DNA from: an uncultured Gammaproteobacteria bacterium | GTDB lineage: Bacteria > Patescibacteriota > Microgenomatia > Daviesbacterales > UBA10151 | Assembly: GCA_964500725.1 (NCBI GenBank) | Contig: CAZCNP010000001.1 | Coordinates: 766-64,765 of the forward strand | DNA: 64,000 bases | Reading direction: 5' to 3' | Shown here: positions 1 to 48,415 of the stretch, in pieces | How positions within the stretch are numbered: the first letter of the stretch is position 1 | Layout of the letters: every line of letters starts with the position of its first letter | The notes under the pieces: model-generated | The model's database searches: none | What the model was told of the DNA's origin: nothing | Seen by the model: the letters and a program-made list of their open reading frames with translations, nothing else | Translations under genes and position numbers: made by a program

Positions 1-377
1 TTTCATCTTACTTGTTGTCCTAAAACACTAACTTTCTATGCTCTAGCCTCATACAGTCACAATAAGCAAAATTCCTCTCAGTTGTCCATACCTCAAAATA
101 CGCTCTTCTCTGTATGATGCAATACCTTAGATAGAGGTTTGCAACCACAAAAAAAGACCCCTTGTAGGCTAAATTGCCTTAAGGAGTCTTGAGTTCGACT
201 CTGACCCGACACGGCAATCAGCCTCAGCCCTTTAATACGCTAAGCCGATAGCCATGTCTTTCTATCTTCTGGTATTAATTATACCATGTCATAATATAAA
301 GAGTATATATACATAATTAATCTGTAATACATAAAAGATATTATAGACAAAAAAACCTACAGCCTTACAATGTAACT

Positions 378-1011
378 ATGGCAGAAGTAACAATTCAACT
401 AGGCACAGGCGGATTCTCAGCTTCCATGCAGCAGGAAGACGCGGATGCAGCAAGCGGTGCGATATCCCTAGCAATGGGGGAAGACAATACCTTTACCCAA
501 CTATTCAGGGGTGGATTAAAGTTCGGATTGACTGATATTCCCCAAGGATCAACAATCAACTCTGCAACCCTAACCTTAACCTATGAACAAGCAGGCAACT
601 GGCGGTCGAGCAACAACAGGACGTGCAGGGTATACAGGTGTTTAAGGGCTTTTGTTAACAATGAAATGACCTGGAATTCCTACTCAACAGGTAATGCGTG
701 GGGTACAGCAGGTGCAGGCAACACCACTACTGACAGGGGAAGCAGCAGACATAGGCACAGCCACCTTTGCGACTACAGCCAATGTTGACGATACAATCAG
801 CTTTACCTTAACAGCAGCTAAGATACAGGAAATGATTACAGGGGGTGTATTCACCAATAATGGCTTTATCCTAAAGGTAGATACAGAAAGCTCAGACAGA
901 TACCAGTTCATAGGTTCAGGGGGGACAGCAGCAAAAAGGCCCAAGCTTGTAATTGACTATACTGCACCAATTGTTGAACAAAAGAACCGTAGCTATGCCT
1001 ACTTCATGTGA
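378..1011 (+). CDS. Hypothetical protein of the mobile element, split over two overlapping frames (378-788 and 694-1011); possible frameshift or pseudogene
   Basis: Both ORF-track frames read as plausible protein on either side of about 700-740. The tail of frame 1 looks like out-of-frame sequence. Confidence 0.35.
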
Positions 1012-1389
1012 CTTAAAGATTGCGAACCGGGTTCCGAATCTCCTAAAGGGTAAATTTCTAAAAATTCCAGAAAAAAAATTTAAGATTAATTTTTAACTTT
1101 GGGTAAATTTTATAAAAAATATAAAAAATAATTTTCAGATCTTTGTATAGCTATTCTTCTACCTAACCCTTTACCCTATATTCTACAGAGGGGGTATGAC
1201 ATTTCATAAGGTACACCACCCACCACCAGGAGGGGGGGATTGAAAACACATGCCCCTATACCTTGAGTAGGGAAACTAGGATAGCAGGGGATTTAGAAAT
1301 AAGGATTTAAGATATGGTGTTTGTTACTCACTAAGTGGACTTTTAGGATAAAGGGAAGAAAACAGTCCGGATAATATACTTAGTATTAC

Positions 1390-1767
1390 TTATCCCTTAT
1401 CGTTATCTATTGAATTATTGCTTTCTAATTGTCTTAGTCTTTTTTCCATATCCGTCTTTTCAACGGTCTCTAAATATATCTTTGAAAGGTGGGCTAGGTC
1501 CCGGGCTGGTATTGTCTTATCGCCTTTGCCTACACTTGTTAATGTAGCCTCAAGTAGTGTCTTTATATCTGCTATTCCTTTTACCTTAAAGTCTTTCAAA
1601 TCTAATGGTCTTTGGAATCTTCCGAATCCACCTTTTTGACTCATTTGTTGTCTAAGTTTTAAGTCCTCAGGGCAATGAAATATACACAAAACCTTTGAAC
1701 TCTTAAATCTACTTGCTCTACAAGGTAAACCCGTCTCTTTATTTTTTGCCTCACATTTTAATGTCAT
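1390..1767 (-). CDS. Small zinc-ribbon protein (mobile element)
   Basis: ORF has CxxxxC and CxxHC motifs near the N-terminus. It is the last gene of a tightly packed minus-strand operon with overlapping stops and starts. Confidence 0.5.
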   Translation of the reverse strand: MTLKCEAKNKETGLPCRASRFKSSKVLCIFHCPEDLKLRQQMSQKGGFGRFQRPLDLKDFKVKGIADIKTLLEATLTSVGKGDKTIPARDLAHLSKIYLETVEKTDMEKRLRQLESNNSIDNDKG

Positions 1768-2063
1768 AATTGTTGCTTACTTTCTGCCAGTCTATACCAA
1801 CTACCGAAAGTCAGCTTTCTGTCCTTAGCCGACCGTTCAATTTCTTTCTGCTTTTCTCTCACTTGGTTTATCTTTTTAGCACCGAAGATTTTTACATATT
1901 CCGCTATTCTCTTGGTGGCATTTGTTGTGTCCGCAAACCCATATTCCAATTGTGTGAAATAATAGTCAACCATTAGGCGGTCCAGACGTGTCATATTATC
2001 CTTATCTTTAAGGTTCTTTTCCAAGATTTTAAGCCGGCTATCAATTGATACACCTGATGGCAT
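1764..2063 (-). CDS. Hypothetical protein (mobile element)
   Basis: ORF overlaps its neighbours by 4 nt, suggesting translational coupling. Confidence 0.5.
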   Translation of the reverse strand: MPSGVSIDSRLKILEKNLKDKDNMTRLDRLMVDYYFTQLEYGFADTTNATKRIAEYVKIFGAKKINQVREKQKEIERSAKDRKLTFGSWYRLAESKQQL

Positions 2064-2064
2064 T

Positions 2065-2466
2065 TTAGTTACTCTCCTTATTGTATCTTTTCTTTAAATC
2101 TTCAGTTAAGACAACAGTAACCGTTTTAGCTAACGCTTCAATATCTTTGCTGTATTTTTCAATTAGGAGTTCCTTTATCCTGGCTGAATGTTCAGCTGTT
2201 GTAACACTAAATGCAGGCAAGGTTACGTCTTCGCTCTTAACAAGCTTTGCTACATCCGCTGCCTGTTGGTTCGTCAATGCTTCTGCTTCCTTGGGATACT
2301 CTTTCCTGAATACTGCATAGAAATATTCTAGTGCTAACCTTTCCGCGAGCTGTTCAATCTCTCGCTCTCTGATAACAACTAAAACTGGTTTTCCATCTTC
2401 TAGTTCTTCTTTTTTAATTGTGTAATCCATATTATTCACCTCGCTTCCTTTATTGATTTTTCCCAT
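2065..2466 (-). CDS. Hypothetical protein (mobile element)
   Basis: ORF in the operon, with charged and helical composition. Confidence 0.5.
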   Translation of the reverse strand: MGKINKGSEVNNMDYTIKKEELEDGKPVLVVIREREIEQLAERLALEYFYAVFRKEYPKEAEALTNQQAADVAKLVKSEDVTLPAFSVTTAEHSARIKELLIEKYSKDIEALAKTVTVVLTEDLKKRYNKESN

Positions 2467-2645
2467 TCAATCGGCACCATTGGATTCATTTCTATAAAGA
2501 ATGTGTGAACAAAATCATTAGCTTTTGGCATTATCTTTAGTTTTCCTGCATCTAAGCCTTTGATTATCCCTTCTAAAAATATCGTTCTGAATTTATGCTT
2601 ACCCCTATCAGTTAGATTGTTATATTCCATTATTTCATTATCCAT
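2436..2645 (-). CDS. Hypothetical small protein (mobile element)
   Basis: ORF overlaps both neighbours. Confidence 0.4.
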   Translation of the reverse strand: MDNEIMEYNNLTDRGKHKFRTIFLEGIIKGLDAGKLKIMPKANDFVHTFFIEMNPMVPIEWEKSIKEAR

Positions 2646-2967
2646 TGTTCTTCCCTTCTAATAGTTTGGCTCGCTCTGCCAGCATAGCTTCCATTTTCTC
2701 CATCTTAAATGCCGGAACGATTGAACCTGTCTTGCCTGTCCCCATGTTTAACAGGGTTTGCTGGTACTCGATCATTAACTTATCCAAAAAGTCTTTTATC
2801 TTTTGCTGTAAAGCTGATAAATAGCCAGGCTTTACCATTTCTTCTTTTAGGATACTGAGCAAGTATTCATTATCACCGTTATTAACCATGAGAGAGCCTA
2901 GGATATAACTTTGAATCATCATCAGCACTTTAGTTTTGTTTTCTTGGTTTTCCATAATTCCTTCCAA
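2638..2967 (-). CDS. Hypothetical protein (mobile element)
   Basis: ORF in the operon. Confidence 0.45.
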   Translation of the reverse strand: MEGIMENQENKTKVLMMIQSYILGSLMVNNGDNEYLLSILKEEMVKPGYLSALQQKIKDFLDKLMIEYQQTLLNMGTGKTGSIVPAFKMEKMEAMLAERAKLLEGKNNG

Positions 2968-3652
2968 ATCGTGTTGTGTGAGATTCTAAAATGCTCTTTT
3001 TTTCGGCTTTGGTTAATCCGCCTTTTTGAAAAGATTGATACCTTTTAATCAGTGGTTCAAGGTGTGTACATTTTGCGCACAACGGTCTTTTTCTGACATC
3101 CTTAGTAAGAACGTCCGTATCACAAATCTCACAGGTTGCTAAACTTAACTGTCTGTTTTTCATTTCCCGTTGTTTTTCTAAGGGTAAATCTGATTTTGTA
3201 GTCTTGGGTTTTTCGTAAGCTGATAACAACTTTCCGAATTTCTCATTTAATCCATTTTGTTTCATAAGGATTCTGACATAATTAGCCAACCGATCGAGCC
3301 TGCTCTCACCTGGAAGGGGTGCTACCATTTTATCTTCCAATGCCCTGATAGTTCCTAATATATCCTCGATCTGGTTGCTCTTAGATTTAACTACTGCATA
3401 ATCAACCAAGTCGCCTACTTTTTCCTTAACCAGATAATCATTATTTTTAGGAATACCCAAAAAGTTAAGAGTTTCATAAAAGGTGGGTGAGCTTCTGTAA
3501 TCATCCTGTGGGATCAATTCTTTTGCTGCTTCAAAATCTTCGGACGTTATCTGGTCTTCCTGGGAAACCTGGTTATCCTGCGTCTCCGGCTGTTCCTGAG
3601 GATTATCAGTAGGTACATCTGTGTATATTGGCTGGGCAGTATTTTCATCCAT
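2930..3652 (-). CDS. Hypothetical protein with an acidic N-terminus and a C-terminal Cys4 zinc ribbon
   Basis: C-terminal CEIC...CAKC motif. Confidence 0.5.
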   Translation of the reverse strand: MDENTAQPIYTDVPTDNPQEQPETQDNQVSQEDQITSEDFEAAKELIPQDDYRSSPTFYETLNFLGIPKNNDYLVKEKVGDLVDYAVVKSKSNQIEDILGTIRALEDKMVAPLPGESRLDRLANYVRILMKQNGLNEKFGKLLSAYEKPKTTKSDLPLEKQREMKNRQLSLATCEICDTDVLTKDVRKRPLCAKCTHLEPLIKRYQSFQKGGLTKAEKKSILESHTTRFGRNYGKPRKQN

Positions 3653-3795
3653 AGTTTTGGTGCATGGGCAGTAGATAGTTACCCTTTAAAAGGCGCTTAA
3701 GGCCACCCATGCGTATTTTTTCTTAAGCCTATATAGAATAACGGCCTAGGAAATTCTGTCAACTAGCAAAGCAGCTAGGTTGTGTTGGCTACCAG

Positions 3796-4137
3796 CTAGT
3801 CCTCGTACAGTGCCTGCCGGTAGCAGCTCTTGCAATAATAAATTAATTTTCCCTCTTCCGCTTCGGTCTCTACCCTTTCACCGCTTAAAGGCTCGTTGCA
3901 GCCGTAGCAGTGACTTCTTTGAAAGATCAACAGTTCATTTTTTAACACCTGCCTAGTCCTACCAACTTTGCCCCTACAGTTTTTGCAATATTTTGCATTA
4001 CTTTTTGTGGCAAATGCTGTTTGGCAATTAAAGCAAACGCTGACATGCGATCTTGGTCGGTATTCCGTCTTTGGTTTCTCGCCAAAGTTTTTAGGTAGGA
4101 TTGTTTTGCCTTGTTTATCCCAGTTTGCAAAGCGCAT
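3796..4137 (-). CDS. Cys-rich zinc-finger protein
   Basis: Multiple CxxC pairs (CFNC, CKNC, CYGC, CKSC). Confidence 0.5.
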   Translation of the reverse strand: MRFANWDKQGKTILPKNFGEKPKTEYRPRSHVSVCFNCQTAFATKSNAKYCKNCRGKVGRTRQVLKNELLIFQRSHCYGCNEPLSGERVETEAEEGKLIYYCKSCYRQALYED

Positions 4138-4142
4138 TTAAC

Positions 4143-4511
4143 CTACACCCCCCATTTACTATCTTTTAAAACTTCTTGCGCCTGTTGGTCCCACTTTCTT
4201 TTTTCCAGTTCAAACCTTCTAGCTTCCTGGCTGGCGTCATAAACCCTATCTTGGATTCTGCTTACTTGGCTATCCTGAACATTAGAGAGCTTTCTAGCCC
4301 ATGAAGTTTCCTGTTTGCTGTGCATCCGTACAGGTTCCAGTTGCTTCTTTAACTTTTCCTGTCTCTCTGCTGCATCTCTTTTGGTAAAAGCTGCAATTCT
4401 GTGAGCAAAAATATCCCTTCCGGTAAATCGCTCACCTTTTTCCAGTTCTATTTTTCTTATCTCAGCTGCCGTGGTTGAATCAATATTATCTGTTGTAAAT
4501 GCTTGTGACAT
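4143..4511 (-). CDS. Hypothetical protein (mobile element)
   Basis: ORF with charged, coiled composition. Confidence 0.5.
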   Translation of the reverse strand: MSQAFTTDNIDSTTAAEIRKIELEKGERFTGRDIFAHRIAAFTKRDAAERQEKLKKQLEPVRMHSKQETSWARKLSNVQDSQVSRIQDRVYDASQEARRFELEKRKWDQQAQEVLKDSKWGV

Positions 4512-4529
4512 TATTTGTACACCTCCTTC

Positions 4530-4829
4530 CTATGGTGAATAGTTAATATAAAATAGCTTCCAGTTCTCGTTAATATATTGAGTCGGTGTAACACTTAAGG
4601 CTATAAGTGTCTCAATCAATAAAGTTCCTATATATGGCGTATTACTTGGCGTACCTAACGCGTCTGTGATTACTTTACGCAACCATTGCTTTGTCTGGTC
4701 TGGTAAAGTTCCTGTGAAGGATTGACCGTTAAAATAAGTTCTTTTTAATTGGTCAATCGTAACCTGGGCTGTACCAGGATTTACCCTAGCCAGCAACCAA
4801 TCCCTCTCCAGTTGTTGTAAGCTTGCCAT
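4530..4829 (-). CDS. Hypothetical protein (mobile element)
   Basis: ORF in the operon. Confidence 0.5.
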   Translation of the reverse strand: MASLQQLERDWLLARVNPGTAQVTIDQLKRTYFNGQSFTGTLPDQTKQWLRKVITDALGTPSNTPYIGTLLIETLIALSVTPTQYINENWKLFYINYSP

Positions 4830-4989
4830 TATATGCCCCTCCTGTAATATGACTGACTAAACGCTAGATCCTTCTGCTCCTTACACGGCTTGCAACGTAC
4901 CGGTTCATTAAAGTTTCTTTTTTTAAAATACTCCTGATCCTTAGTTCCAAAAGTAAAAAATTCTCCACAATCTACACATTTTATTTTTT

Positions 4990-7900
4990 TCATAGTGATT
5001 GCCTTAACATTAATTTTTTAGTAGACAATGGTGTGAAAAGTCGCTTCGGCAGCTTTGGAACCATTATCTTTGCTGGTGTTATTTTATTAATACTTGGACT
5101 AATTTTCCTAATAGGTAAAAACTTTAATTTTTTAGGTCGTGTGTAGTTGCCTGTGGGTGTATCAAGAGTGCCTTTGCTGTAAGCAATTAGCTGATCCAAC
5201 ATTTTTTTCTGTTCTTTGGAAATGTCCCCATCGTCCAACCACTTAGCCGTTACTCCGGTTGATAAAACTTCAACCTCTGCTAAATAAAGAGCTGTCTTTT
5301 TGAATTCCTCATTTGCTAGTCCTTTCAGTGTTCCCTTGATAAACTTACCCCTGCTGCCGTTCTCAACTGATAGTCCCTTCATCATAATTACACTGGCTGT
5401 TTCCCAGCTCAAGCCTTGCTTTTGTAGTATTTCTTCTGTTTGTGCTCTCGGTAGGCCCAAATCAAAAACATCTTTTATTGTTTTCTCGTTTTGGGACATT
5501 TCCCTTTCATTCATCAAAGCATCAAGTAGGGGATCGCCTGTAGGATTCTGTTTAGTTGGTTCTGTAGCTTTTTGTTTAAATAATCCAAACAAATCAAATC
5601 CTGACTTGGGCTGTAAGTCCGGTTTCACTTCCCTGGACCGAATAATCATATTGTGGGCTTCTGTGGGCTTATATCCTGAATTCAGTAATAGTTTGTATGT
5701 TGCTGTTTCTGCCTCTGATAATGGTCTGCCGTCGTCATAATATTGCTGTGCGCCAGAGGTAGTCGTAGGTCCGAAAATAGCAGCTTGTGGACCTTGCACC
5801 GGATACCTTAAACGTCCTGTTTCGGTATAACTTCCACCTTCTCCGATTGCCTTTGTTCCCTCAAAGGTTTTCTTAATCTGTGCACCTGCCGGAAGATAAT
5901 TTATAGCACCTTTCACTACATTTTTATTTAATATACGGTCCTGTAGGCTTAGCGGATTACCATAGGCGTCCTGATCCTGAGTAACAGCTTGAGTTGCACC
6001 GTAGGGTAACTGCAAAGTAGGTGGTACTCCTATCCTTATTGTTGGTATCAAATCTTCAACTTTCATTCCCCATAACCTGCCTAAGGTTGATACCATAAAT
6101 AGGGAAGCGCCTGTCCATCTAACAAGCCCTGCAAAGTCTTTATTTTTTATCATGCCACCCAAAAACTCACCTTGTTTTAAGGTATAGGATTGAAATTGAC
6201 CTAATGTTTTAGCAAGGTCTGAAGAAAGAATCTGAGGAGTATCAATACTGCCAAATGTGAATTGAGTTTCTCTTACCAGTTGCTTTGCATACTTAACCGC
6301 CTCTGCCTCGCTCATGCCCTGACTGATAGCTTTTGCCTTTGCGCCCCAAAAAGCTGCACCCCTGTTGATTTTTTCAGCTAGGTTGAATAGATAAAAAAGG
6401 CCTTCGTCAATCTTTTGCATCGTCTGTTTTGTTGCACTGAGTGTCCGGTCTTCAATTATGTTATTTGCTAAAACTCCCACATCGTGCAGCTCTGTGTCTT
6501 TGCCTGCTAAAAACTTCGGCATATTTTGTAAGACCTTTGTATATCCGATTAAGGTATATTTTTCGCCTAATTTTGCGTAAGTGTTGGCGCCCTGGGTAAG
6601 ATTTAGTAAGGCAGTTTTAACATTGAGCCCCAAAAGTCCCCGGTAAACCATTTGTCGGGCTTTTTGAGTGATAACCGTTAGGGGTCTTGCTCCCATTCTG
6701 TAGCCAAAAGGTGAGGACTTAATGGCATTGTCGATCAAATTATCAATATCCGAGGGCCTCATATTTATACGATCAATCCGGGATTTAACGTACCTGAACT
6801 GCGAATCCTCCAAGCCTTCAGCTGCGTCACTTATCTTTTTTAGCACAGGGTCCAAGTTTACTTTCCTGACGGCCCTTTTTGTGTAAGCATCAAGCGATCG
6901 CCAAACATCCTCAATATAGCCTTGTTTTCCTAGCCGTTGCTCAACAAAAGGATCATAAACTGAACCAGCTACTTTGTCTCGGATTAATTTTGCAAAATCC
7001 GGATCAAATTCTTTTTTTATTAAGTCCTGGTCGAAAATGTGTGTAATGTAATTTGTGATCCTTTTCTCTTTCGGCAAACCCAACCTTTCGGCCCAATTAG
7101 ATAGATAACCTTTGATCTCTTCTGCAACCTTTAACTCTTCCCCCTGCAAAATAGTATTTTTTCCATCTAGCCATTGAAAGATTTTTTGATTTGATTCAGG
7201 CAAAACACGCTTACTCCAATCCGTAATCCTTTGAATCTCTTGCGGTAGTTCTGTTTGATAGCTGTCAAAAGCAGTCCGGAGCTGCTCCGCCTGTTTTCCT
7301 AAACCTATTTTATTAAGTACATATTCGGGTGTTCTGAAATAGTCCAGAATGTTTACCTTTGATTTAACATCAATGCTGCTTTTTAAAGAATTTTCAAAGG
7401 CACTGGCTGAATCGTAATTACCTTGCGATTTAATCCAGTCCAAAGGCGTCATATTATTTTCAATAATTTTCTGGCTTTCCTTATATCCGATCTTGTCTAT
7501 CTGGGCTTTTTTAAAACCTCTTGCGATTAAGTCATTCCCGTAATTTAAAAGGTTTGAGAGCCTTGCTTCTTTAGTGGCTGCTGTAGCAATCTTTGCTCCT
7601 ACCTTTGCCCCAACTTGAGTAACGCCCATTGGTGAAAAACTCAAAGCTTGTTCTGCTATTTGCTCCTGAGTTGGCAGTGGATTCTTTTGTGCAAAGTTTG
7701 ATCTACGTCTTAGGCCTTCCGGTGTTTCACCAAATCCTGCAAAACTGGCAACGTCTTTCCCGTAATTGACTGCGGGCTGAATATATCTAGTGTTTACGTT
7801 CTGAAGCCTTTTCTGTAAATTATTTGCCAGTGTATCAATTGTTGGTTTTAAAACCGTATGCGCTTGACCTAAGAAATTTTGAAAACCTTGGTTTAACTCA

Positions 7901-8175
7901 TTCATTTGCGGCTGAGCTATTTTTTTTAATTCGTTTATAAATCGGTCTTGAGCGACTTCAGTCGGTGGGGTAAATCTAGGTAATTGGCTGGGGGGTTGTG
8001 GGGGTAAAGGGTTAAAATTTTGTGGCCGGGGTGTTTGTAAAAAATTCTGAAAACCCGTTTCTAAGTTTTCCAAACCTTGACTCGCTTTCTGGGCAACAGT
8101 ATTAAAGTTGCTAGCAGAAATTATTTTTTTTACGGCTTCTGATCCGAATTTTTCTAATGCCGTCGAAATGCTCAT
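4990..8175 (-). CDS. Large hypothetical protein (1061 aa), possibly virion-associated or structural
   Basis: Long ORF with a Pro/Gln-rich N-terminal region and a Lys-rich C-terminus. It is the largest gene of the element. I recognise no catalytic motif. Confidence 0.55.
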   Translation of the reverse strand: MSISTALEKFGSEAVKKIISASNFNTVAQKASQGLENLETGFQNFLQTPRPQNFNPLPPQPPSQLPRFTPPTEVAQDRFINELKKIAQPQMNELNQGFQNFLGQAHTVLKPTIDTLANNLQKRLQNVNTRYIQPAVNYGKDVASFAGFGETPEGLRRRSNFAQKNPLPTQEQIAEQALSFSPMGVTQVGAKVGAKIATAATKEARLSNLLNYGNDLIARGFKKAQIDKIGYKESQKIIENNMTPLDWIKSQGNYDSASAFENSLKSSIDVKSKVNILDYFRTPEYVLNKIGLGKQAEQLRTAFDSYQTELPQEIQRITDWSKRVLPESNQKIFQWLDGKNTILQGEELKVAEEIKGYLSNWAERLGLPKEKRITNYITHIFDQDLIKKEFDPDFAKLIRDKVAGSVYDPFVEQRLGKQGYIEDVWRSLDAYTKRAVRKVNLDPVLKKISDAAEGLEDSQFRYVKSRIDRINMRPSDIDNLIDNAIKSSPFGYRMGARPLTVITQKARQMVYRGLLGLNVKTALLNLTQGANTYAKLGEKYTLIGYTKVLQNMPKFLAGKDTELHDVGVLANNIIEDRTLSATKQTMQKIDEGLFYLFNLAEKINRGAAFWGAKAKAISQGMSEAEAVKYAKQLVRETQFTFGSIDTPQILSSDLAKTLGQFQSYTLKQGEFLGGMIKNKDFAGLVRWTGASLFMVSTLGRLWGMKVEDLIPTIRIGVPPTLQLPYGATQAVTQDQDAYGNPLSLQDRILNKNVVKGAINYLPAGAQIKKTFEGTKAIGEGGSYTETGRLRYPVQGPQAAIFGPTTTSGAQQYYDDGRPLSEAETATYKLLLNSGYKPTEAHNMIIRSREVKPDLQPKSGFDLFGLFKQKATEPTKQNPTGDPLLDALMNEREMSQNEKTIKDVFDLGLPRAQTEEILQKQGLSWETASVIMMKGLSVENGSRGKFIKGTLKGLANEEFKKTALYLAEVEVLSTGVTAKWLDDGDISKEQKKMLDQLIAYSKGTLDTPTGNYTRPKKLKFLPIRKISPSINKITPAKIMVPKLPKRLFTPLSTKKLMLRQSL

Positions 8176-8183
8176 ATTGTAAT

Positions 8184-9455
8184 TTAAACGAAAGGATTTG
8201 TTAGATTTTCATAAGGGTCATCTTTATTACCCTTTGTTGGAGCGTATAAAGAATATGAATTCAAACCTTGGCTTTGTGGGGACAAACTTTGCGAACCAGA
8301 AAAACCGGAATAATCTAAAGTCGGCTGCTGAAGCTGGGAGAAGTTGTTTGCAATTTGCGCGTTTTGCTCGTATTTCCATATTTCTAAATCCCAGAGGGCT
8401 GCTTGGCGAGTAGCCGCTAAATTATCTATTTGTGATTTGTATTGACTCAAGAGCTGAAAAGCATTCCCCGCCTTGGCTGACTTTATTGAACTCTCGTCTG
8501 AAAAAATCTGCATAAGCTGGGCTTGAGCGTTGGCTCTGATTTTTTGCTCTTCCGTAAGGACATTCTCATCAATTTTTCGTCTCTGATTGAAGGCGTATCG
8601 GTCCAGTTGCGCGGCATAATCCTGCAATTTAGCTGTTTGATTTGTATATGAGCGCTCATTTGCCCCTTGCTGTCTGGCAAATTCCTTAGAGGCTATTTCT
8701 GTAGCGGCCATCCCTGCACTGCCCCTACCTCCGAATCTGGCTTGGGATTGCTGTTGAAGGGCTTTATACGAGCGGAGAGCCTCGTCAAAAGCTGACGTTT
8801 TTTCTGCATCTAACGCGCCTTGCGAGGTCTTAATTGTATCAAAACCAAGTTGCTTTTGCTCTTCCACATCTCTCTTCATTTGCTCTTGTTGCAATTTCAA
8901 ATCATTAAGCGCTCCTGGTAAAGAAACGTCATTAATATATGATTTTTGTTGTTGAAGAGTGTCAAAAAGTGGATTATAAATACTATCCAATTGTGCACTC
9001 AAATCCGGCTGACTGTTTGATGAACCATAGCCACGGGCTTGTCTTAATCTGTTTATATCGCCACCCATAGCAGAATTGAAGTCATTAATTGCGGAACCTT
9101 CGGGCCAACCTTGATAAAATGGCGAAATTTGATCCCAAAGAGAACCACCGCCGGAATTATTTTGCTGAGGTGCAGGAGTTGGTGCAGGTGCAGGTTTGGC
9201 AGGCTGTGGGACGTTATAACCTACAACACCGGAACTGCTCAAAGGACTAATCAAGCCTGGCGTTTGGTACGGTGTCAGTTGAGCACTGGTTGAGGTCCGG
9301 TAATTTAAATCTAACGGACTGGTGCTTCTATAAAATAAATCATTTGGTACGTTTAATGCCATAATTTTTCCCAATAAAAAAGAGCCCTTTGCCGTTTTGG
9401 CTTTTGGACTCTCTGAATGACCTTTTAAGGTCAAAACAAATATTTGTATTCTCAA
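8184..9455 (-). CDS. Gln/Asn-rich coiled-coil protein (423 aa), possibly scaffold- or fibre-like
   Basis: ORF with Q/N-rich and Pro-Ala stretches. It is the first gene of the leftward operon. Confidence 0.5.
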   Translation of the reverse strand: MRIQIFVLTLKGHSESPKAKTAKGSFLLGKIMALNVPNDLFYRSTSPLDLNYRTSTSAQLTPYQTPGLISPLSSSGVVGYNVPQPAKPAPAPTPAPQQNNSGGGSLWDQISPFYQGWPEGSAINDFNSAMGGDINRLRQARGYGSSNSQPDLSAQLDSIYNPLFDTLQQQKSYINDVSLPGALNDLKLQQEQMKRDVEEQKQLGFDTIKTSQGALDAEKTSAFDEALRSYKALQQQSQARFGGRGSAGMAATEIASKEFARQQGANERSYTNQTAKLQDYAAQLDRYAFNQRRKIDENVLTEEQKIRANAQAQLMQIFSDESSIKSAKAGNAFQLLSQYKSQIDNLAATRQAALWDLEIWKYEQNAQIANNFSQLQQPTLDYSGFSGSQSLSPQSQGLNSYSLYAPTKGNKDDPYENLTNPFV

Positions 9456-9703
9456 GTATATAGGCTGTGGAAAAGTTGTCTAGATACCAAAATAGGCACA
9501 AATCAAAAAAAACTACCCAAAAATCAAAGGCCCTGTAGTTCGATTTAAGGGCTTACAGATAGTGTCCCCTACTCTTAGGGTCAACTAAACTAAAAATTAC
9601 AGGCACAAAATGAAGCTAAAATAGTGGGGGAGTGGTAGGGTATCAAACTATGTCAAAAATGCCTTAGTTTGGATGAGTATATCAAAGTGTATCAAGAAAA
9701 GAT

Positions 9704-9970
9704 TTAACTGCTGTTTTTCTGTGACGTGGCTATATTACAAAGCTGTTCACAGACGAAGTCCGCAGCTTTTCTATCAGACAAACCGCTGGGCACTTCAACG
9801 TGAATGTTTCTGATTTCTATTGCAAATCGCTCTGCGTCCTCACCAGAGTTAAAATAACCTGGTAAAAAACCTCTTGAGGTTTCTTTATTCACAAGAACTG
9901 CAATTGCTGCCTGGAACTTGCCTGTTTGATGATCTTGCCTCACTCCTTTGATTTCAACTTTGTAATTCAT
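9704..9970 (-). CDS. Hypothetical small protein
   Basis: ORF upstream of the leftward operon. Confidence 0.4.
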   Translation of the reverse strand: MNYKVEIKGVRQDHQTGKFQAAIAVLVNKETSRGFLPGYFNSGEDAERFAIEIRNIHVEVPSGLSDRKAADFVCEQLCNIATSQKNSS

Positions 9971-10059
9971 TATTTTAATATTACCAGAACCTTAAAACAT
10001 ATCTAAGCCTATAGATATTTTGGTCTTATTTTGCGCACAAAATGCTTTTAAGTTGCCCC

Positions 10060-10088
10060 TTGACGACAAATATTTTTGGTAGTATTCT
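10060..10088 (+). promoter_or_regulatory. Candidate sigma70-type promoter (TTGACG, 17-nt spacer, TATTCT) driving the rightward replication operon, inside a divergent control region
   Basis: Hexamers read directly from the sequence. Nested inverted repeats (AGCAGC..TCGGAgcgaTCCGA..GCTGCT, then a T-run) lie at about 10140-10200. Confidence 0.3.
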
Positions 10089-10283
10089 TGTTTGCAGTTA
10101 GAAAATAAGAACAGCTAATTCAGCTTTTAAAAAAGCACTTTAGCAGCTATATTTTTCGGAGCGATCCGAAAGAAATGGCTGCTTTTTTTGTGGAATTTTT
10201 AGATTAAAGGAGAGATTCAGTAGGTGGTAATTAATGTTTTCTTGAAAAACTGGGCATATTCCGCCACCTACTGAAAACAAAAC

Positions 10284-10487
10284 ATGAACACTATAAAAGA
10301 TTATATCAGAAATAAAAAAGTAGGCCTTTGGAGCAAGGTATGTCTTACTTGCGGCGTCCCCCTTAAATACAAACACTCAACTCACCCTTATTGCAGTAAG
10401 TGTTACCTGAAATCTGAAATCTTCCACGAGTGGCGCAGAAAATATGACCGAGCACGCAGAAAAAGAGAGAGGGAGGCTAAAAAATGA
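10284..10487 (+). CDS. Small zinc-ribbon protein, translationally coupled to the primase (ATGA overlap)
   Basis: CLTCG...CSKC motifs, Lys/Arg-rich tail, and a 4-nt overlap with the next gene. Confidence 0.5.
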   Translation: MNTIKDYIRNKKVGLWSKVCLTCGVPLKYKHSTHPYCSKCYLKSEIFHEWRRKYDRARRKREREAKK

Positions 10488-12991
10488 GTTATCAATCCTT
10501 AACTCCTGAAAAACTTCTAAGTTATTTCGAGGGTACAATCTTTCAAACTTTTTATGATCCGGATTCTACTAGCAAGGAATTCCCACCTGAAGTGTTTCTA
10601 AGCTACAGCCCCCATGAGTTAAAGGAATTAAACAATCAGAAATATGGAATATATTTTTCGGTTAATGCCTTTAAGGATCAGAGGCTAAACGATAACCTCG
10701 TCAAATTAAATGCCGCCTATGGCGATTTGGACATAGCTAAAGAGGGGGACGGGCAAACACCAGCAGATATTTTAAATAAAAAAAGGGAAGTTTTTAAAAA
10801 GCTGCGCGATCTATCTATTAAGCCTAACATTATTATTCAGACTAAAAATGGCGTTCAACCACTATTCTTAATCGAGAACCCTGGAATTGATAAAGACACT
10901 ATCAAAACCTATACAGACACAATCTGTGGACTTACAGCCTGGTCAAAGAATTATGGCTGCGCCGGAGACGCGGTTAAAGACATAGCAAGGGTTTTAAGGC
11001 TTCCCGGCTATTACCACCAAAAGGGTGAGCCGTTTATGGTTGAAGCCTACCTAATTCATGAAGAAAAAACCACACTCTTAGAGCTTTCTAAACTGTTCCC
11101 ATATTTTGATGAGAGAAAGATCATAAATGATAATTCTGCAAAGGACGGGAAATCTACTGACCTTGATGGCCTTACCATGCAAGAGATTGCCCTGGCAGCC
11201 CTGAAAGAATATGGAGAGCCGGACGCATATTTTGATGATAAAGGCAGGATATGGATTAAGAGAGGGGTTACCGGTGCATTCTTAGGCAAAATGGATAATT
11301 GCGACTATATCGGCAGCAACTCGCATGAGCTGCCCTATGGGAACAAAATAACTTTTGTTAGGGAGCTGTTAAAGCTTGAAAGTAATGCAGCAGCTTTTAA
11401 GTGGATAGCTCAAAAATTCAATTTACAAAGACCGGTACCGGCAAAAGAAAGTTTTGAACAATTAACCGACACTACAAACGCCGAACTCATCAATGAATTG
11501 TTTGGTAATAAAATCCGCTTTGACCATAAACGCAAGAGGTGGCTGAAATGGCAGGACCATTCCTGGCAACCCGATTCTGACGGCAGTATCAGCAGATTAG
11601 CTATAGAGGCAGCCAGACACCGATTCAAATCCGCTGCTAATATTGAAAGCTTAACTAAAAAAACTGCAATCTCTAAGTGGGCCATTCAAAGTGAGAGCAG
11701 ACAAAGACTTGATTCAGCTTTGGCAATATCAAAAAATTTGCTACCAATTGCCGACAATGGTGAAAATTGGGACTTAGACTCTATGCTTTTAGGAGTTAAA
11801 AATGGAGTTTTGGATCTCAAAACAGGAACTTTAAGGGACGGCAAACCTGAAGATCGTATAACCATGCGGGCAGGAACACTATTCTACCCCGAAGCAAAGT
11901 GCCCGCTTTGGGAAAAATTCCTAAATGAGATTTTTGAAAATGATGAGAATTTAATCAGTTATATCCATAAGGCGTTGGGGTATACCTTAACAGGATCAGT
12001 TATAGAACAAGCCCTATTTTTCGGATTCGGCAGTGGCTCAAATGGGAAGAGTGTTTTCTTTGAAACTATCAACGCCGTCTTAGGTGACTATGCACACAAT
12101 GCGCCAGCCAGCTTACTTCAACGAAATGCACAGAATCAATCCTCTAATGACGTTGCAGCAACTGAATTCAAAAGATTTTTAGTGTCTTCGGAAACCCTTA
12201 GCACTTCTAAGCTGAACGAACAACGGTTAAAAAAGTGGAGCGGCGGAGACCGTGAAACGGCAAGGTATCTCTATTCTGAATTTTTTACATTTCAACCCAC
12301 CTGTAAGGTTTGGTTATTCATCAACCATAAACCGGCGGTTGAGGATGATTCCTTCGGGTTTTGGCGGAGAGTCAGACTGATTCCTTTTAACCGAAAGTTT
12401 AAAGAGGAGGACCAGGACAAGCACTTACTGGAAAAATTAAAAACAGAACTACCAGGAATCTTAAACTGGATGGTCAAGGGTTGCTTAAAATGGCAAGCAG
12501 AGGGATTAAGGCCTACACCTGAAAAAATATCTTTGGCGACTAAAAACTATCAAGCCGAAAATGACGAATTGGCTGAATTCTTATTTGAAAAATGCAGTGA
12601 GTTGGCGGGCCAAGAAGTCAAGGCACTGGAACTATACCGCAAATATACAGAATGGGCCGAAAAAGCAGGATTTAAAAATAAAGATGCGCTCACGAAGACA
12701 GCCTTCGGACGAAGAATGGCGGATAAATTTGTTAAAATTCACCGTGAAACTGGCTGGTTTTACCAAATAACTGACGAGTTTGCTAAAAATCTAGGCACGA
12801 CTGACGAGTTAGACCCCATTTTATATAAAGTCCCTATACGAGATAATCACCAAAATAGTTTACTAAAAACAGCTCTCAACTCGTCAGCAGGCACGAAAAC
12901 CCGTCAGGACTCGTCAGCTGACCAAAAGGACGAAAAACCCAAAATTACCCCCACAGACAAGGAGGATGATGGCAGCTGGCTTGAAGCGTGA
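10484..12991 (+). CDS. Phage/plasmid primase-helicase (D5_N / P4-family primase C-terminal, SF3 helicase)
   Basis: 835-aa ORF with a Walker A motif (FGSGSNGKS). The family identification rests on overall resemblance. Confidence 0.75.
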   Translation: MSYQSLTPEKLLSYFEGTIFQTFYDPDSTSKEFPPEVFLSYSPHELKELNNQKYGIYFSVNAFKDQRLNDNLVKLNAAYGDLDIAKEGDGQTPADILNKKREVFKKLRDLSIKPNIIIQTKNGVQPLFLIENPGIDKDTIKTYTDTICGLTAWSKNYGCAGDAVKDIARVLRLPGYYHQKGEPFMVEAYLIHEEKTTLLELSKLFPYFDERKIINDNSAKDGKSTDLDGLTMQEIALAALKEYGEPDAYFDDKGRIWIKRGVTGAFLGKMDNCDYIGSNSHELPYGNKITFVRELLKLESNAAAFKWIAQKFNLQRPVPAKESFEQLTDTTNAELINELFGNKIRFDHKRKRWLKWQDHSWQPDSDGSISRLAIEAARHRFKSAANIESLTKKTAISKWAIQSESRQRLDSALAISKNLLPIADNGENWDLDSMLLGVKNGVLDLKTGTLRDGKPEDRITMRAGTLFYPEAKCPLWEKFLNEIFENDENLISYIHKALGYTLTGSVIEQALFFGFGSGSNGKSVFFETINAVLGDYAHNAPASLLQRNAQNQSSNDVAATEFKRFLVSSETLSTSKLNEQRLKKWSGGDRETARYLYSEFFTFQPTCKVWLFINHKPAVEDDSFGFWRRVRLIPFNRKFKEEDQDKHLLEKLKTELPGILNWMVKGCLKWQAEGLRPTPEKISLATKNYQAENDELAEFLFEKCSELAGQEVKALELYRKYTEWAEKAGFKNKDALTKTAFGRRMADKFVKIHRETGWFYQITDEFAKNLGTTDELDPILYKVPIRDNHQNSLLKTALNSSAGTKTRQDSSADQKDEKPKITPTDKEDDGSWLEA

Positions 12992-13244
12992 TACTAAAGA
13001 GAATATCCGGTTATCAAAAATTGCTCAGTATTTCACAGAGCTGAAAATGCTGCGCAAAACTTGCAAAGAAAACATGGAGCATTACAAATTTCTAAAAGAG
13101 TTTAAAGAAATGCCGATTGTGATTCTTGAGGGACTAGGTGTAGATAGATTTTTCTCAGAGGCAGTCTTCATTTTTGACGGTGTATTAACCCCTGAATTTA
13201 TAGAAAGTTTCAGACAAACAGAAAGTAGGCCATTCTGGGGATAA
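12966..13244 (+). CDS. Hypothetical protein
   Basis: ORF overlapping the primase end. Confidence 0.4.
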   Translation: MMAAGLKRDTKENIRLSKIAQYFTELKMLRKTCKENMEHYKFLKEFKEMPIVILEGLGVDRFFSEAVFIFDGVLTPEFIESFRQTESRPFWG

Positions 13245-13245
13245 T

Positions 13246-13455
13246 ATGGCTGCAATTATTGTGAAAGCAAAACCTGGGGAAAGTACCGATAAGCTGATAA
13301 AACGCTTTCAGCGTGCAACGTCTCAGGACGTAAAAGGTTTTAAAGAACGAAAAGCTTTCATAAGTAAAACTGAAGAACGGTTGCTCGCAGAAAAAGAAAA
13401 GAGAAGAAAAATTGCAAAGTTAAAAAGACTACAAGAATTAGGAATTGAACAATAG
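13246..13455 (+). CDS. rpsU: Ribosomal protein bS21-like (element-encoded)
   Basis: 69-aa basic protein. It aligns along its length to E. coli bS21 (compare [22 protein letters not shown]....[13 protein letters not shown]). Confidence 0.6.
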   Translation: MAAIIVKAKPGESTDKLIKRFQRATSQDVKGFKERKAFISKTEERLLAEKEKRRKIAKLKRLQELGIEQ

Positions 13456-13768
13456 AAGGGGGGTGAATTATGGAAAAAATAAATATTGGTTTATTTGTGG
13501 TTTGCGTACTTTACCTTCTTTGGCTGTTCAAAATGAGCAAGGTTTTTTAAAGTTTGCCGACCGGGCGTTTGTTGGGAATGCCCGGTTGAGAGATTTTAAA
13601 ATATGAAAAAAGAAAAACCATATTGTGAGAAAGACAAAAGCACCTCTTCTGCAGGCCCTGTAGCAAAAAATATGCCAAATTGCGTGCGTAAGTGTAGAGC
13701 TAATACCCCAGAGAGCACTAGTACATCATCTCAAAATAAGCTAGGCACGATTTCGTAGTTAGAAAAAA

Positions 13769-14809
13769 TTAGGATATTTCAACTTCAAGAGTCAGAATAT
13801 TTCCTTTTAAATTTCCACCTTTAATAATACGTCCAACTTCCCAAGCATGAGAAATCAGTTCTTTGGCTTTCTCTTCTGCGCTTCTGAATTTTCTAGCCTC
13901 TGAACTGTAATTTTTTAAAGTTTTAGCTTGAGTGCTTGTATCAAACTGTAAATACCTTAATGTGGTTTCTACTGCCCTATGTCCCATTACGTCTTTAATG
14001 TCTGAAACATCGGCACCGTTAGCTTTTAAATCCCTGGCAAATATCCGGCGTAAGTCGTGCACATTCATGCTGTTACCCCAAAGCTTACCAACTTTTCGCA
14101 TATGTACCTCTAATTTTTGCATATTAACCACAAACAAACGGTCCTTGTCACTTTCTTTATAGTGGCTTTTATCTTTTAAAGTTTTAAGTTCATCCGGTGT
14201 GCGCTCACCATTTACACGCCTCTTTAAATCTTCCAACAACCAAGGTATGTTTGGCAATGCTGCATTCCTGGGTCCGTTCTTGCCTTCAACAATTGTGAGC
14301 TGATTACCACTGAGCGAAACGTCTTTTCTTAATATCTGGGAAGTCTCAAAGTTTCTACCACCACAAGCTACAACCATAAAGCTGAGACAGGCCCGGTGTT
14401 CCATTTTAGAGAATGTTGATAGCCTACTGTCATATTTGCCTGGCTCTGTAGCTTCTTTTATCAGTCCTAAGACTTCGGATTGAGACGGTAAAACACGGGC
14501 TTTCCTGTGTACATGGGTTCGGTCAATATTAACTGTCCATTTTTTAGGGATAATATCTTCATAAAATAGCCAGTCTGCAAAAGCCAGGACAGCGGTTTCA
14601 GCCTGTCTTCTGGTTGACTCTGCCAAACCTTTATCCGGTAGATAGTTAAAGAATTTGATAATGATTTCACGGTTTAAGGGTCCGTCTAAGTATTCAAGGA
14701 ATAGTTTGAAGTAATACAGGTTATTAGTCCTGGTGGATTTTGATTGCCACCTTCGCTGCCTGTGTTCTATAAATCTTTCTAAATGTGTACGCACCTGCTC
14801 TTTATCCAT
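13769..14809 (-). CDS. int: Tyrosine recombinase / integrase
   Basis: C-terminal HDLRRIFARDL....GHRAVETTLRYL motif (His, Arg, catalytic Tyr). The ORF-track start at 14890 is a GTG overlapping the tRNA, so I trimmed it to the ATG (MDKEQ...). Confidence 0.85.
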   Translation of the reverse strand: MDKEQVRTHLERFIEHRQRRWQSKSTRTNNLYYFKLFLEYLDGPLNREIIIKFFNYLPDKGLAESTRRQAETAVLAFADWLFYEDIIPKKWTVNIDRTHVHRKARVLPSQSEVLGLIKEATEPGKYDSRLSTFSKMEHRACLSFMVVACGGRNFETSQILRKDVSLSGNQLTIVEGKNGPRNAALPNIPWLLEDLKRRVNGERTPDELKTLKDKSHYKESDKDRLFVVNMQKLEVHMRKVGKLWGNSMNVHDLRRIFARDLKANGADVSDIKDVMGHRAVETTLRYLQFDTSTQAKTLKNYSSEARKFRSAEEKAKELISHAWEVGRIIKGGNLKGNILTLEVEIS

Positions 14810-14883
14810 ATAAAAGAATAAAGAGATGGTGTCATTCCGCAAGACCTTAACCCACCCGTATGAGTGAGAACTCACCTCAATTG

Positions 14884-14956
14884 TGGGCACTGAGGGATTC
14901 GGACCCCCGACAACCGCAGTGTAAATGCGGTGCTCTACCAGCTGAGCTAAGTGCCC
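14884..14956 (-). tRNA. tRNA-Val (anticodon TAC)
   Basis: Hand-folded cloverleaf: acceptor GGGCACT/AGTGCCC, anticodon stem CCGCA/TGCGG, loop TTTACAC, T-loop TCCGAAT. Confidence 0.85.
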
Positions 14957-14991
14957 AATTTCTGCTCAGCCCGCAGAGCATAGCACAAATA

Positions 14992-15035
14992 CTTCGCAGT
15001 GTAAACGAAGCGCTCTACCACTGAGCTAAGTGCCC
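14992..15035 (-). pseudogene. 5'-half pseudo-tRNA-Val (acceptor, D-arm and anticodon region only); an att-associated remnant
   Basis: GGGCACTTAGCTCAGTGGTAGAGCGCTTCGTTTACACTGCGAAG. The intact tRNA-Val has the same acceptor and the same 11-nt TTTACACTGCG anticodon-region core, but a different D-loop and anticodon stem. The T-arm is missing. Confidence 0.6.
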
Positions 15036-15036
15036 T

Positions 15037-15123
15037 TGGTGGGCGGGACAGGACTTGAACCTGCACAGTCTTGCGACCATATGCACCTCAAGCATACACG
15101 TATACCAATTCCGTCACCCGCCC
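15037..15123 (-). tRNA. tRNA-Leu (anticodon GAG), long variable arm, encoded CCA
   Basis: Acceptor GGGCGGG/CCCGCCC, anticodon stem TATGC/GCATA, loop TTGAGGT, T-loop TTCAAGT, 87 nt. Confidence 0.8.
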
Positions 15124-15178
15124 ACATCATCAGCAATTTTATCAGTTTACTAGGGGGTTAGCAATCTAAAGGAGAGAT

Positions 15179-16411
15179 CTAGGAATTAAGGGTATCTTGT
15201 GCAGCAACTGCATATAAACCGTGGGACTGTTTCGCTTCGCGAAATAAATTCTTCTTTGGTTGACTTCCAGGAATTAATATATTTCCTGATTTTGGTATAG
15301 ATATTATAGGTGCCCTTACTTTTGTATACCTCTTGGCAGGAATATACATCTCTTTTCTATAAATTTTTAGATATTGTAAAGCTGCTGTGTAAGGAGAAAA
15401 ATTCTCCTCCACATGCAGCCTGCAAACTTTTCTGTCAATTTCCCCAACCCTTTTGATAGCTTTGACCATTTCTTGTTTGTCTTTAACCAAAAAACCAGTT
15501 TTATTATTAACAATAAGCTCAGGAGCTGCCCCTCTTTTAAAACTAATAACAGGGGTGCCTGCAGCCATTGATTCCACCATGACCATCCCAAAAGGCTCAT
15601 CCCAATTTATAGGATTTAAAAATGCCTTAGCCCCGCCCAACAATCTATTTTTAAGCCTTAAATTAGCAGGTCCCAGAAACTGAATTTGCTTGCCATCTAT
15701 TAAAGGTTTTACTTTTTCCTTCCAGTATTTAACTGATTTTTCATAATAGGTATCCACAATTCCTGCAAAGACTAGCTGCTCTCCTGCAGCTTTGGCAATC
15801 TTAATTGCTTCAACTGTGCCTTTTTCTGGAATAATTTTGCCCAACCAGGTTAAATACTTCCCACCTTTTGGATTAAACTTGATAGTTGAAGTATCTAAAC
15901 TGTTATAAACAAAGCCCCCATCACGAAAACCTTTTGGCAGGGTTTTATGCATTGATTTGGAAATATTAACAGCCAAAATATCTTTGGCATACAGTTTTAT
16001 CAAAGTCTTATCCATATTAGAATATCTATCATATGGCCATCTGGAATGAATGGTCATCAAATTTGGGATACCTTGCTTAGTCAGATCTGCTAAAAAGGGC
16101 ATTACTATCAAATCTGTAGAAGAAGCAATGTGGGCATGAACTACATCATATTTAAAAGCCTCCTTAAATGCTTCATAATAATGAATAAAAGCAGGCAAAC
16201 CAGCAGTCCAGGAAATTCCCTGGGATAGCAGAGATCTTTTAAAGATATATTTAATGTTACTTATAGCTTTGGAAGTCTTAGTGGCAAAAAGAGTTACTTG
16301 ATGCCCTAAATCAGACAAACCTTTAACTAAATTAGCAATAACCCATTCAGTTCCTCCATAATTATCAGGTGGGGTATCTACCCATGGGGAGGCTATCTGT
16401 AATATCTTCAT
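15179..16411 (-). CDS. Glycosyltransferase family 4 (GT-B, Glycos_transf_1)
   Basis: EPFGMVMVESMAAGTPVI...NNKTGFLV, the E-x7-E retaining GT motif. Confidence 0.8.
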   Translation of the reverse strand: MKILQIASPWVDTPPDNYGGTEWVIANLVKGLSDLGHQVTLFATKTSKAISNIKYIFKRSLLSQGISWTAGLPAFIHYYEAFKEAFKYDVVHAHIASSTDLIVMPFLADLTKQGIPNLMTIHSRWPYDRYSNMDKTLIKLYAKDILAVNISKSMHKTLPKGFRDGGFVYNSLDTSTIKFNPKGGKYLTWLGKIIPEKGTVEAIKIAKAAGEQLVFAGIVDTYYEKSVKYWKEKVKPLIDGKQIQFLGPANLRLKNRLLGGAKAFLNPINWDEPFGMVMVESMAAGTPVISFKRGAAPELIVNNKTGFLVKDKQEMVKAIKRVGEIDRKVCRLHVEENFSPYTAALQYLKIYRKEMYIPAKRYTKVRAPIISIPKSGNILIPGSQPKKNLFREAKQSHGLYAVAAQDTLNS

Positions 16412-16422
16412 AATTTTGTAAA

Positions 16423-16456
16423 AATTACAGTCTTTTACTGAAAGTAAAAGTATATA
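16423..16456. promoter_or_regulatory. 34-nt conserved palindromic element (AATTACAGTCTTTTACTGAAAGTAAAAGTATATA), copy 1, 12 nt upstream of the GT4 start
   Basis: Identical to 48382-48415. It contains an 8-3-8 inverted repeat (CTTTTACT gaa AGTAAAAG) and a TATATA box. Confidence 0.55.
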
Positions 16457-16520
16457 GACCTGCCAAAGTATAAATGTTTTAAATTAGAGAAAATTGAAAA
16501 TTAAGTAAGGTTTTAGTAAG

Positions 16521-17804: not shown

Positions 17805-17841
17805 TTTGAAATGGGTAATCTACAAAATTATTATATACAAG

Positions 17842-17988
17842 TCAAGTAAGAATTTGCTTTAGTAACTTTTCTTTTAAATCCTCTAAGTTTTTAAATATAA
17901 TCCCTTTAATTCCTAATTTTTCCTCCATCAAAGTACTTTTGTGTTTTAAAATAACACCCCCAAAATCGAAAATAATATTTTTAATCAT
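17842..17988 (-). CDS. 48-aa ORF resembling a HAD-like hydrolase N-terminal motif I (IIFDFGGVIL); possible gene remnant
   Basis: Hand translation. Absent from the ORF track because it is under 60 aa. Confidence 0.25.
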   Translation of the reverse strand: MIKNIIFDFGGVILKHKSTLMEEKLGIKGIIFKNLEDLKEKLLKQILT

Positions 17989-18043
17989 ACTTTAATTATA
18001 TTATTTTATTGACAAATAAGGAGTAAAGGAAGATAGTAAGCTT

Positions 18044-18766: not shown

Positions 18767-18767
18767 T

Positions 18768-18941
18768 ATGTTTAAGTTTATCAAGACTAAATTACTAAAT
18801 GAGAAAGAAAAAGTTTCTGCTCCAAGTTTCTTTGATTATACAGCTGCAGAGAAGAAAAAAATTGTAAAAAAAGCAGCTCAAGAAGCTAATAAAATGCAGC
18901 TTAATCTGGTAAAAAAATATAATCGTTTATATCCTGCTTAA
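18768..18941 (+). CDS. 57-aa Lys-rich small ORF coupled to the zeta-like gene (stop/start TAATATG)
   Basis: Hand translation: MFKFIKTKLLNEKEKVSAPSFFDYTAAEKKKIVKKAAQEANKMQLNLVKKYNRLYPA. Confidence 0.3.
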   Translation: MFKFIKTKLLNEKEKVSAPSFFDYTAAEKKKIVKKAAQEANKMQLNLVKKYNRLYPA

Positions 18942-18960
18942 AAACCTACCATTTTTTCTT

Positions 18961-20106: not shown

Positions 20107-20149
20107 TCTTACATTGTACAGTACTCAAACCCTGCAATTGCTCACAGAA

Positions 20150-48381: not shown

Positions 48382-48415
48382 AATTACAGTCTTTTACTGA
48401 AAGTAAAAGTATATA
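48382..48415. promoter_or_regulatory. 34-nt conserved palindromic element, copy 2, 17 nt upstream of the tandem-GT2 start
   Basis: Identical to 16423-16456 and in the same orientation relative to the downstream gene. Confidence 0.55.

Follow-up and report, generated by a model that had tools for sequence, protein, structure and literature searches.

A divergent bS21 homolog beside the replicase is a core gene of small integrative elements in Daviesbacteria-like CPR bacteria

Why should a gene for a ribosomal protein travel on a mobile element, next to the genes that replicate and integrate it? The locus examined here raises this question within a stretch of 64,000 nucleotides (the window), in which a short open reading frame had been interpreted as a bS21 homolog carried by an integrated element. 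CPR bacteria have reduced ribosomes, and to our knowledge very few mobile elements or viruses of these organisms have been described. In the analyses below we asked what the protein is, what carries it, how widely the arrangement is conserved, and which functions are compatible with its position. The features on which the argument rests are collected in Table 1.

Table 1. Features of the integrative element and its right junction, in window coordinates
Feature	Position	Strand	Remarks
Window portion of the ~15.7-kb integrative element	1..14998	.	about 715 nt more to the left
Treble-clef zinc finger, 54 aa (PF13451 zf_Tbcl)	4829..4993	-	common to the elements
Conserved element protein, 1061 aa	4990..8175	-	
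Conserved element protein, 392 aa	8184..9362	-	disordered N-terminus, long helices
AP2-like DNA-binding ORF, 88 aa	9704..9970	-	by the divergent intergenic region; candidate regulator; E=1.6e-4, below cutoff
Basic zinc-ribbon-like ORF, 67 aa	10284..10487	+	head of the replication operon; weak zinc-ribbon matches only
D5/P4-type primase-helicase, 835 aa (D5_N, DUF5906, Pox_D5)	10484..12991	+	the element's replicase
92-aa ORF	12966..13244	+	overlaps the primase 3' end; immediately precedes the S21 gene
Element-type bS21 homolog, 69 aa	13246..13455	+	net charge +10, pI 10.3
Hydrophobic micro-ORF, 26 aa (MEKINIGLFVVCVLYLLWLFKMSKVF)	13470..13550	+	strong SD ahead
Tyrosine integrase (PF00589), 346 aa per public record	13769..14809	-	
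Intact element-borne tRNA-Val(TAC)	14883..14956	-	between the split host tRNA-Val halves
Orphan 5' half of host tRNA-Val(TAC)	14999..15035	-	right junction of the element

The reading frame opens with an ATG, and its translation is the sequence quoted in the sequence-only reading, which had described a basic protein of 69 residues that aligns with bS21 over its full length; NCBI gives the product the name 30S ribosomal protein S21. PF01165, the model that had been proposed as a check, matches the protein nearly end to end (profile positions 2-54 of 55, E=2.9e-4), but with 20.9 bits it does not reach the gathering score, which is 27. The S21p equivalog model TIGR00030 gives 30.4 bits, above its cutoff of 28.95. 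When the window protein was used as a single query, phmmer matched only bS21 chains in the PDB, and the top six PDB matches of a profile built from five subfamily members were likewise bS21 chains (E 0.0015-0.07). An HMM of canonical S21, built here from 110 Microgenomates/Daviesbacteria proteins, gave the window protein 44.7 bits, and an approximate E. coli S21 sequence reached 29.6 bits on the same model. TIGR00030, the PDB profile and the 110-protein HMM support the proposed relationship to S21. Judged by these scores, the homology to S21 lies beyond chance, yet it is marginal on generic models.

The predicted structure points the same way. An AlphaFold2 model computed from a 43-sequence alignment (pLDDT 86) has an extended N-terminus followed by helices at residues 14-34 and 41-64. 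All 10 of its 10 Foldseek matches in the PDB are bS21 chains, derived from bacterial, plastid and mitochondrial ribosomes, and every one has E>=0.64; that none is singly significant is expected for a two-helix protein of 69 residues. Size and charge also fit bS21, which measures about 55-75 aa and is strongly basic. The helix 1 motif (L.RF+R) is kept as LIKRFQR, and the motif preceding helix 2 (+.F/Y.KPS/T..+) has changed from KPS to SKTE, with an additional deletion of two residues. Taken together, sequence comparison and modeling identify the protein as a divergent bS21 homolog.

How it differs from the S21 of its host lineage is apparent from a comparison with the canonical Daviesbacteria protein, which is 65 aa long (e.g. 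P0065 and P0084, both named as such by NCBI) and is encoded at a conserved housekeeping locus in the order tig-HIT-rpsU-yqeY-ybeY-dnaX. Canonical Daviesbacteria/Microgenomates S21 proteins belong to the same length class, are 33-38% identical to the element type, and share with it an N-terminal [IV]V[KR]A.PG[ED]S.D motif as well as LI.+F and EK+RKI; net charge is equal, at +10/+11 in the element type and in host bS21. The differences are concentrated in three places. Canonical YKKPS[EQ] is replaced by F[IV]S[KE]TE, two residues between the helices are deleted in the element type, and the C-terminal tail consists of Lys, Leu and Glu and ends in G-I-I/L, in contrast to the Arg-rich RKIMRARRYSG of canonical S21. 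As judged from the alignment, changes in the KPS motif, the inter-helix region and the tail could have altered ribosome binding or caused its loss.

Neither a second S21 gene nor the canonical tig-HIT-yqeY-ybeY neighbours were found within the 64,000-nt window. A scan of species-representative genomes, driven by a 6-sequence alignment and run on a collection that excludes the window's own assembly, detected canonical S21 in about 20 Daviesbacteria-titled records, including the complete chromosome CP066688.1. The same scan encountered the element type once only, in JACPKM, where it corresponds to the L004 element; the pattern scan saw no canonical S21 in this genome. In a neighbour-joining tree of the kind that had been suggested, with host and viral S21 sequences included, the element proteins form one clade of their own (bootstrap 70) outside the tight host S21 clade. 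The tree leaves the deeper placement of the element clade unsettled. Because the element clade lies outside that of the host, the gene was not recently captured from the present host lineage. One sequence, L032, had seemed to be an intermediate S21 (41% identity) and was discarded when its surroundings proved to be those of a normal canonical rpsU.

The sequence-only reading had placed the gene inside an element integrated at a tRNA-Val gene, between a P4-type primase and an integrase, and this placement is confirmed. The integrase gene lies next to a complete tRNA-Val(TAC) on the element's right side, beyond which the orphan 5' half of the host tRNA-Val adjoins tRNA-Leu(GAG). The partner of this half, which would mark the left att site, was sought within the window and is absent from it. 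Logan contig L007, which is 100% identical to window 1-1075 and runs 2.7 kb further left, supplies it: the missing 3' half occupies L007 1981-2018, which places it about 715-752 nt outside the left end of the window, and is followed by host genes including glmS. The anticodon-stem and acceptor strands of the two halves are complementary, and when rejoined at the anticodon loop they yield a canonical tRNA-Val(TAC) in which the CCA end is encoded. GC content is ~0.40 over window 1-15000, the element, versus ~0.35 in the remaining window, which is host. Since split tRNA-Val halves flank ~15.7 kb of higher GC and rejoin canonically, the element boundary is not an artefact. The element of ~15.7 kb interrupts the anticodon loop of a host tRNA-Val, for which it brings an intact tRNA-Val(TAC) as a substitute. 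With a PF00589 recombinase at one end and halves of the target gene on both flanks, it has the organization of a tRNA-integrated element.

Several details of the junctions deserve mention. The insertion does not regenerate the host tRNA-Val(TAC), and the complete copy lies 38 nt inside the junction. Both junctions, at window ~14998 and L007 ~2019, share only a short core of about TACAY..CGAAG, in which there is a 2-nt indel. In the predicted circular form, attP would join L007 2019 onwards to window 14998. The predicted reconstituted attB contains CTTCGTTTACACCGAAGATGTC, and no empty attB site was found among the fetched loci. At the far left of the window, a Disaggr_repeat (PF06848)-like protein is encoded at 378-1011 (+) in two frames, 378-788 and 694-1011; this region is 100% identical in independent Logan contigs, and the split is therefore a real or programmed frameshift, not an error in a single assembly. 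As for the organism, a protein identical to the window S21 is encoded on JACQIW010000013.1, part of the Candidatus Daviesbacteria MAG GCA_016198315.1, and recurs in several Logan assemblies from the same series of groundwater samples. The host, which had been surmised to be CPR-like, is Candidatus Daviesbacteria.

Within the element, the S21 start codon lies 1 nt past the stop codon of the 92-aa frame, and this spacing, together with the overlap of that frame with the primase gene, indicates that the three genes form one operon. The 92-aa product has a homolog in a 95-aa ORF of L004 and is absent from some elements. A hydrophobic, single-helix micro-ORF of 26-30 aa, preceded by a strong SD, lies 3' of the S21 gene in 4 of 5 elements (in the window, and at L004 10511, L012 10224 and L015 4455). 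The window copy has a GC-rich hairpin after it, at about 13560-13590. Its product may be a membrane peptide, such as a toxin, holin or exclusion factor.

We then considered how far this arrangement extends. An exhaustive HMMER search over 1.84 billion representative proteins returned only 20 relatives at E<=1e-3. In an indexed search with the subfamily profile, 11 proteins scored at E 5e-31 to 1.5e-21, and canonical PF01165 S21 proteins started at E about 4e-6; on the strength of these values, the 11 proteins constitute an element-type clade sharply set apart from canonical S21. Genomic context was readable for 6 of the 11 members (the window, L004, L012/L013, L014, L015 and L086), and in all six it is a related element in which the S21-like gene follows the replicase either directly or after a single small ORF. 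The rightward operon has the same plan in each case: replicase, sometimes a small ORF, the S21-like gene, small ORFs and a recombinase. A leftward module is also common to the elements, as compared without the short contigs L015 and L086, and comprises a protein of ~1,060-1,170 aa, a second of ~380-410 aa, a treble-clef zinc finger and small ORFs. The replicases are of four kinds: a fused D5 primase-helicase, Zn_ribbon_DnaG plus D5, a DnaG-DnaB fusion with RepO, and Prim-Pol/AAA_25. The recombinase is of the tyrosine type in two of the six elements and of the serine type in the other four, and the sister element L004 terminates at tRNA-Glu. The S21-like gene holds its place while replicases and recombinases are swapped, and it is a hallmark, or core, gene of a family of integrative elements, ~15 kb in size, that reside in Daviesbacteria-like CPR bacteria.

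Comparison of the coding sequences gave dN/dS values of 0.13-0.45 at near-saturated dS, which points to purifying selection on the S21-like gene. Between the window and L004 the gene retains about 80% nucleotide identity and is among the few stretches still alignable. That 13246..13455 might be a chance ORF was also considered, and this is ruled out by its conservation and dN/dS. In L012, a second island-like block (12815-20207) lies just past the element's serine recombinase and encodes a MerR-type protein, a tyrosine integrase, an SLFN/AlbA_2 protein and a large AAA_11/AAA_12 helicase; a defence island is one possible interpretation, and a mobile element in tandem with the first is another.

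The carrier had been described as a small integrative element or prophage. The first term is justified by the split tRNA-Val; the second is unproven, as no virion genes were recognised. Searches of the element ORFs tested against Pfam and PHROGs gave no match to a capsid, portal, terminase or packaging ATPase, and profiles of the 1061-aa and 392-aa families found no sequence matches in the PDB. A single-sequence AlphaFold2 model of the 392-aa protein (pLDDT 57) is all-helical or disordered, with no recognisable capsid fold. The 1061-aa protein has one region, residues 583-669, that is similar to a domain known from 'polyvalent'/DarB-like proteins of giant phages (phrog_11358, E=1.9e-6), and the remainder of this protein has no detectable relatives beyond the element family. 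Such a domain is compatible with a protein that is delivered along with DNA, and is not diagnostic. The element S21 family is absent from IMG/VR, INPHARED, PLSDB and JGI metagenomes, where elements or free circles were sought. The sole relative in IMG/VR is a viral S21 on L016 8609-8821 (UViG_3300002514_001143) that has 33% identity and clusters in the tree with ordinary bacterial S21, not with the element clade. We therefore refer to an integrative element; virus status is unproven, and a novel capsid may have escaped detection.

If the element protein acts on translation, the signals preceding element and host genes are of interest. Strong SD sequences (dG<=-8) precede 17 of 49 element ORFs versus 15 of 118 host ORFs (Fisher p=0.002), and 6 of 12 versus 4 of 50 in the window alone; these counts assume a canonical anti-SD, admit lenient start codons, and pool elements that are related and non-independent. 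At a weaker threshold the contrast is not significant (p=0.08), and overall GGAGG density is lower in the element. The contrast is suggestive and fits a model of translation bias.

Two observations were made on the host side of the junction. In window 15150-64000 few host genes have an SD motif and many have a TATAAT-like box 7-12 nt ahead of the ATG, a pattern suggesting that mRNAs of this Daviesbacteria have very short leaders or none. A 34-nt sequence (TATATACTTTTACTTTCAGTAAAAGACTGTAATT) with a perfect internal hairpin (CTTTTAC/GTAAAAG) is repeated exactly at 16423-16456 and 48382-48415. The two copies lie a short distance upstream of host genes that are unrelated to each other, one for a glycosyltransferase (15179-16411, -) and the other a 588-aa ORF (46599-48365, -), and may serve both as a common operator or 5'-leader element.

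What, then, might the protein do? We favor a functional, divergent bS21 paralog, a core gene of the element, whose product would replace host bS21 and shift initiation, and we put the chance of this at about even. The gene would be transcribed within the element's replication operon, and its product would take the 30S platform site in place of the 65-aa host bS21 on some ribosomes. The swapped-in protein would then alter the choice of initiation sites, and altered initiation would favor the element's own, more Shine-Dalgarno-dependent mRNAs. Ribosome incorporation, and with it any effect on translation, is something that we infer. For phage bS21, entry into host ribosomes in place of the host protein at initiation has been proposed (PMC9723584, PMC6375957), and bS21 of a Pelagibacter phage has been expressed in a surrogate host (PMC6375957). 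Francisella bS21 paralogs alter the set of translated mRNAs (PMC9578407), and in Flavobacterium bS21 helps control anti-SD availability (PMC9976891). A bolder version holds that the elements are unrecognised small temperate viruses or virus-like elements of CPR bacteria, in which a specialised bS21, co-expressed with the replicase as a single-protein takeover module, would turn Daviesbacteria ribosomes that are indifferent to the SD, their mRNAs being mostly leaderless or SD-poor, toward SD-led element mRNAs; this we consider rather unlikely.

The fixed position beside the replicase would fit a replication function just as well, and the main rival to ribosome substitution, possible though on balance unlikely in our estimation, is that a bS21-derived protein has been exapted as a non-ribosomal, basic nucleic-acid-binding accessory of replication or regulation that acts on primers, the origin or element RNA. 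The gene follows the replicase whatever the replicase type, but gene order alone does not demonstrate a functional link. In the same direction, the KPS motif and the C-terminal tail depart from canonical S21, the score on the host S21 HMM can be counted as about the level of E. coli S21 (44.7 versus 29.6 bits), and bS21 has a reported extraribosomal RNA partner in the OLE RNP (PMC12054373). Full-length collinearity with S21, length, charge and the predicted two-helix topology have nevertheless all been kept, and a signature of a DNA-binding domain was sought in the protein and not found. The element copy might instead benefit or addict its host, without hijacking it, by replacing a lost rpsU or topping up a limiting supply of bS21. 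JACPKM, the sole species-representative genome with an element copy, showed no canonical S21 in the pattern scan, a result that MAG incompleteness or a pattern miss could also explain. Several CPR lineages have lost bS21, but Daviesbacteria are not among the lineages listed as usually lacking it (PMC9297842). Canonical rpsU is widespread at its conserved locus in the Daviesbacteria records noted above, which makes supply of the host less likely, and we regard it as improbable, although it could still hold for this particular genome. Finally, the marginal scores on generic S21 models might be taken to indicate a recently captured or decaying passenger without a selected function. Retention in at least 11 diverged sequences and in six elements with swapped modules, the dN/dS values and nucleotide identity given above, and a clade that is not nested within host S21 largely refute this interpretation, to which we attach very little credence.

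The element bS21 can be set against systems already described. The bS21 genes of viruses (Mizuno et al. 2019, PMC6375957; Chen et al. 2022, PMC9723584) likewise belong to mobile genomes and are under purifying selection. The carriers reported there are overwhelmingly lytic and often very large phages, in which bS21 has the look of an accessory gene. Temperate markers were present in only 3 of 1310 bS21-encoding viral genomes or contigs (PMC6375957), and the 47 genomes of Chen et al., up to 331 kbp in size, lack an integrase (PMC9723584). In those phages the gene is usually found beside capsid, protease or terminase genes, typically a few genes from those for the prohead protease and major capsid protein, and is late-expressed; the predicted hosts are Proteobacteria, Bacteroidetes and Firmicutes (PMC9723584). 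Here, in contrast, a CPR bacterium is the host, and the gene is borne on an element of ~15.7 kb that is integrated at a tRNA gene and in which neither a capsid nor a terminase could be recognised; the gene adjoins the replicase and is a hallmark of its family. The bS21 paralogs of Francisella tularensis (Trautmann and Ramsey 2022, PMC9578407) offer a second parallel: there too a divergent second bS21 exists beside the canonical one, and the paralogs generate heterogeneous ribosomes and selective translation, the mechanism that we propose for the element. The Francisella genes are chromosomal, whereas ours travels with a mobile element, and that its product joins ribosomes is a proposal. P4-like and other tRNA-integrating islands share the D5_N/Pox_D5 primase-helicase, the tyrosine integrase and the tRNA target. 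They differ in that our element inserts into an anticodon loop, does not regenerate the host tRNA and carries a replacement tRNA-Val, and in that its sister elements have serine recombinases and other replicases. Mobile-element- and virus-encoded bS21 was already known; what is new is its carriage by small integrative elements of CPR bacteria, as a replicase-adjacent hallmark gene.

The bS21 paralog is the one small gene that a family of ~15-kb elements keeps while exchanging its replicases and integrases. If the element protein enters the ribosome, these elements would provide a compact natural system in which a single ribosomal protein redirects initiation, and bS21 would also serve as a marker gene for mobile elements of CPR bacteria. 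If it does not, they would illustrate how a mobile element can exapt a ribosomal protein.
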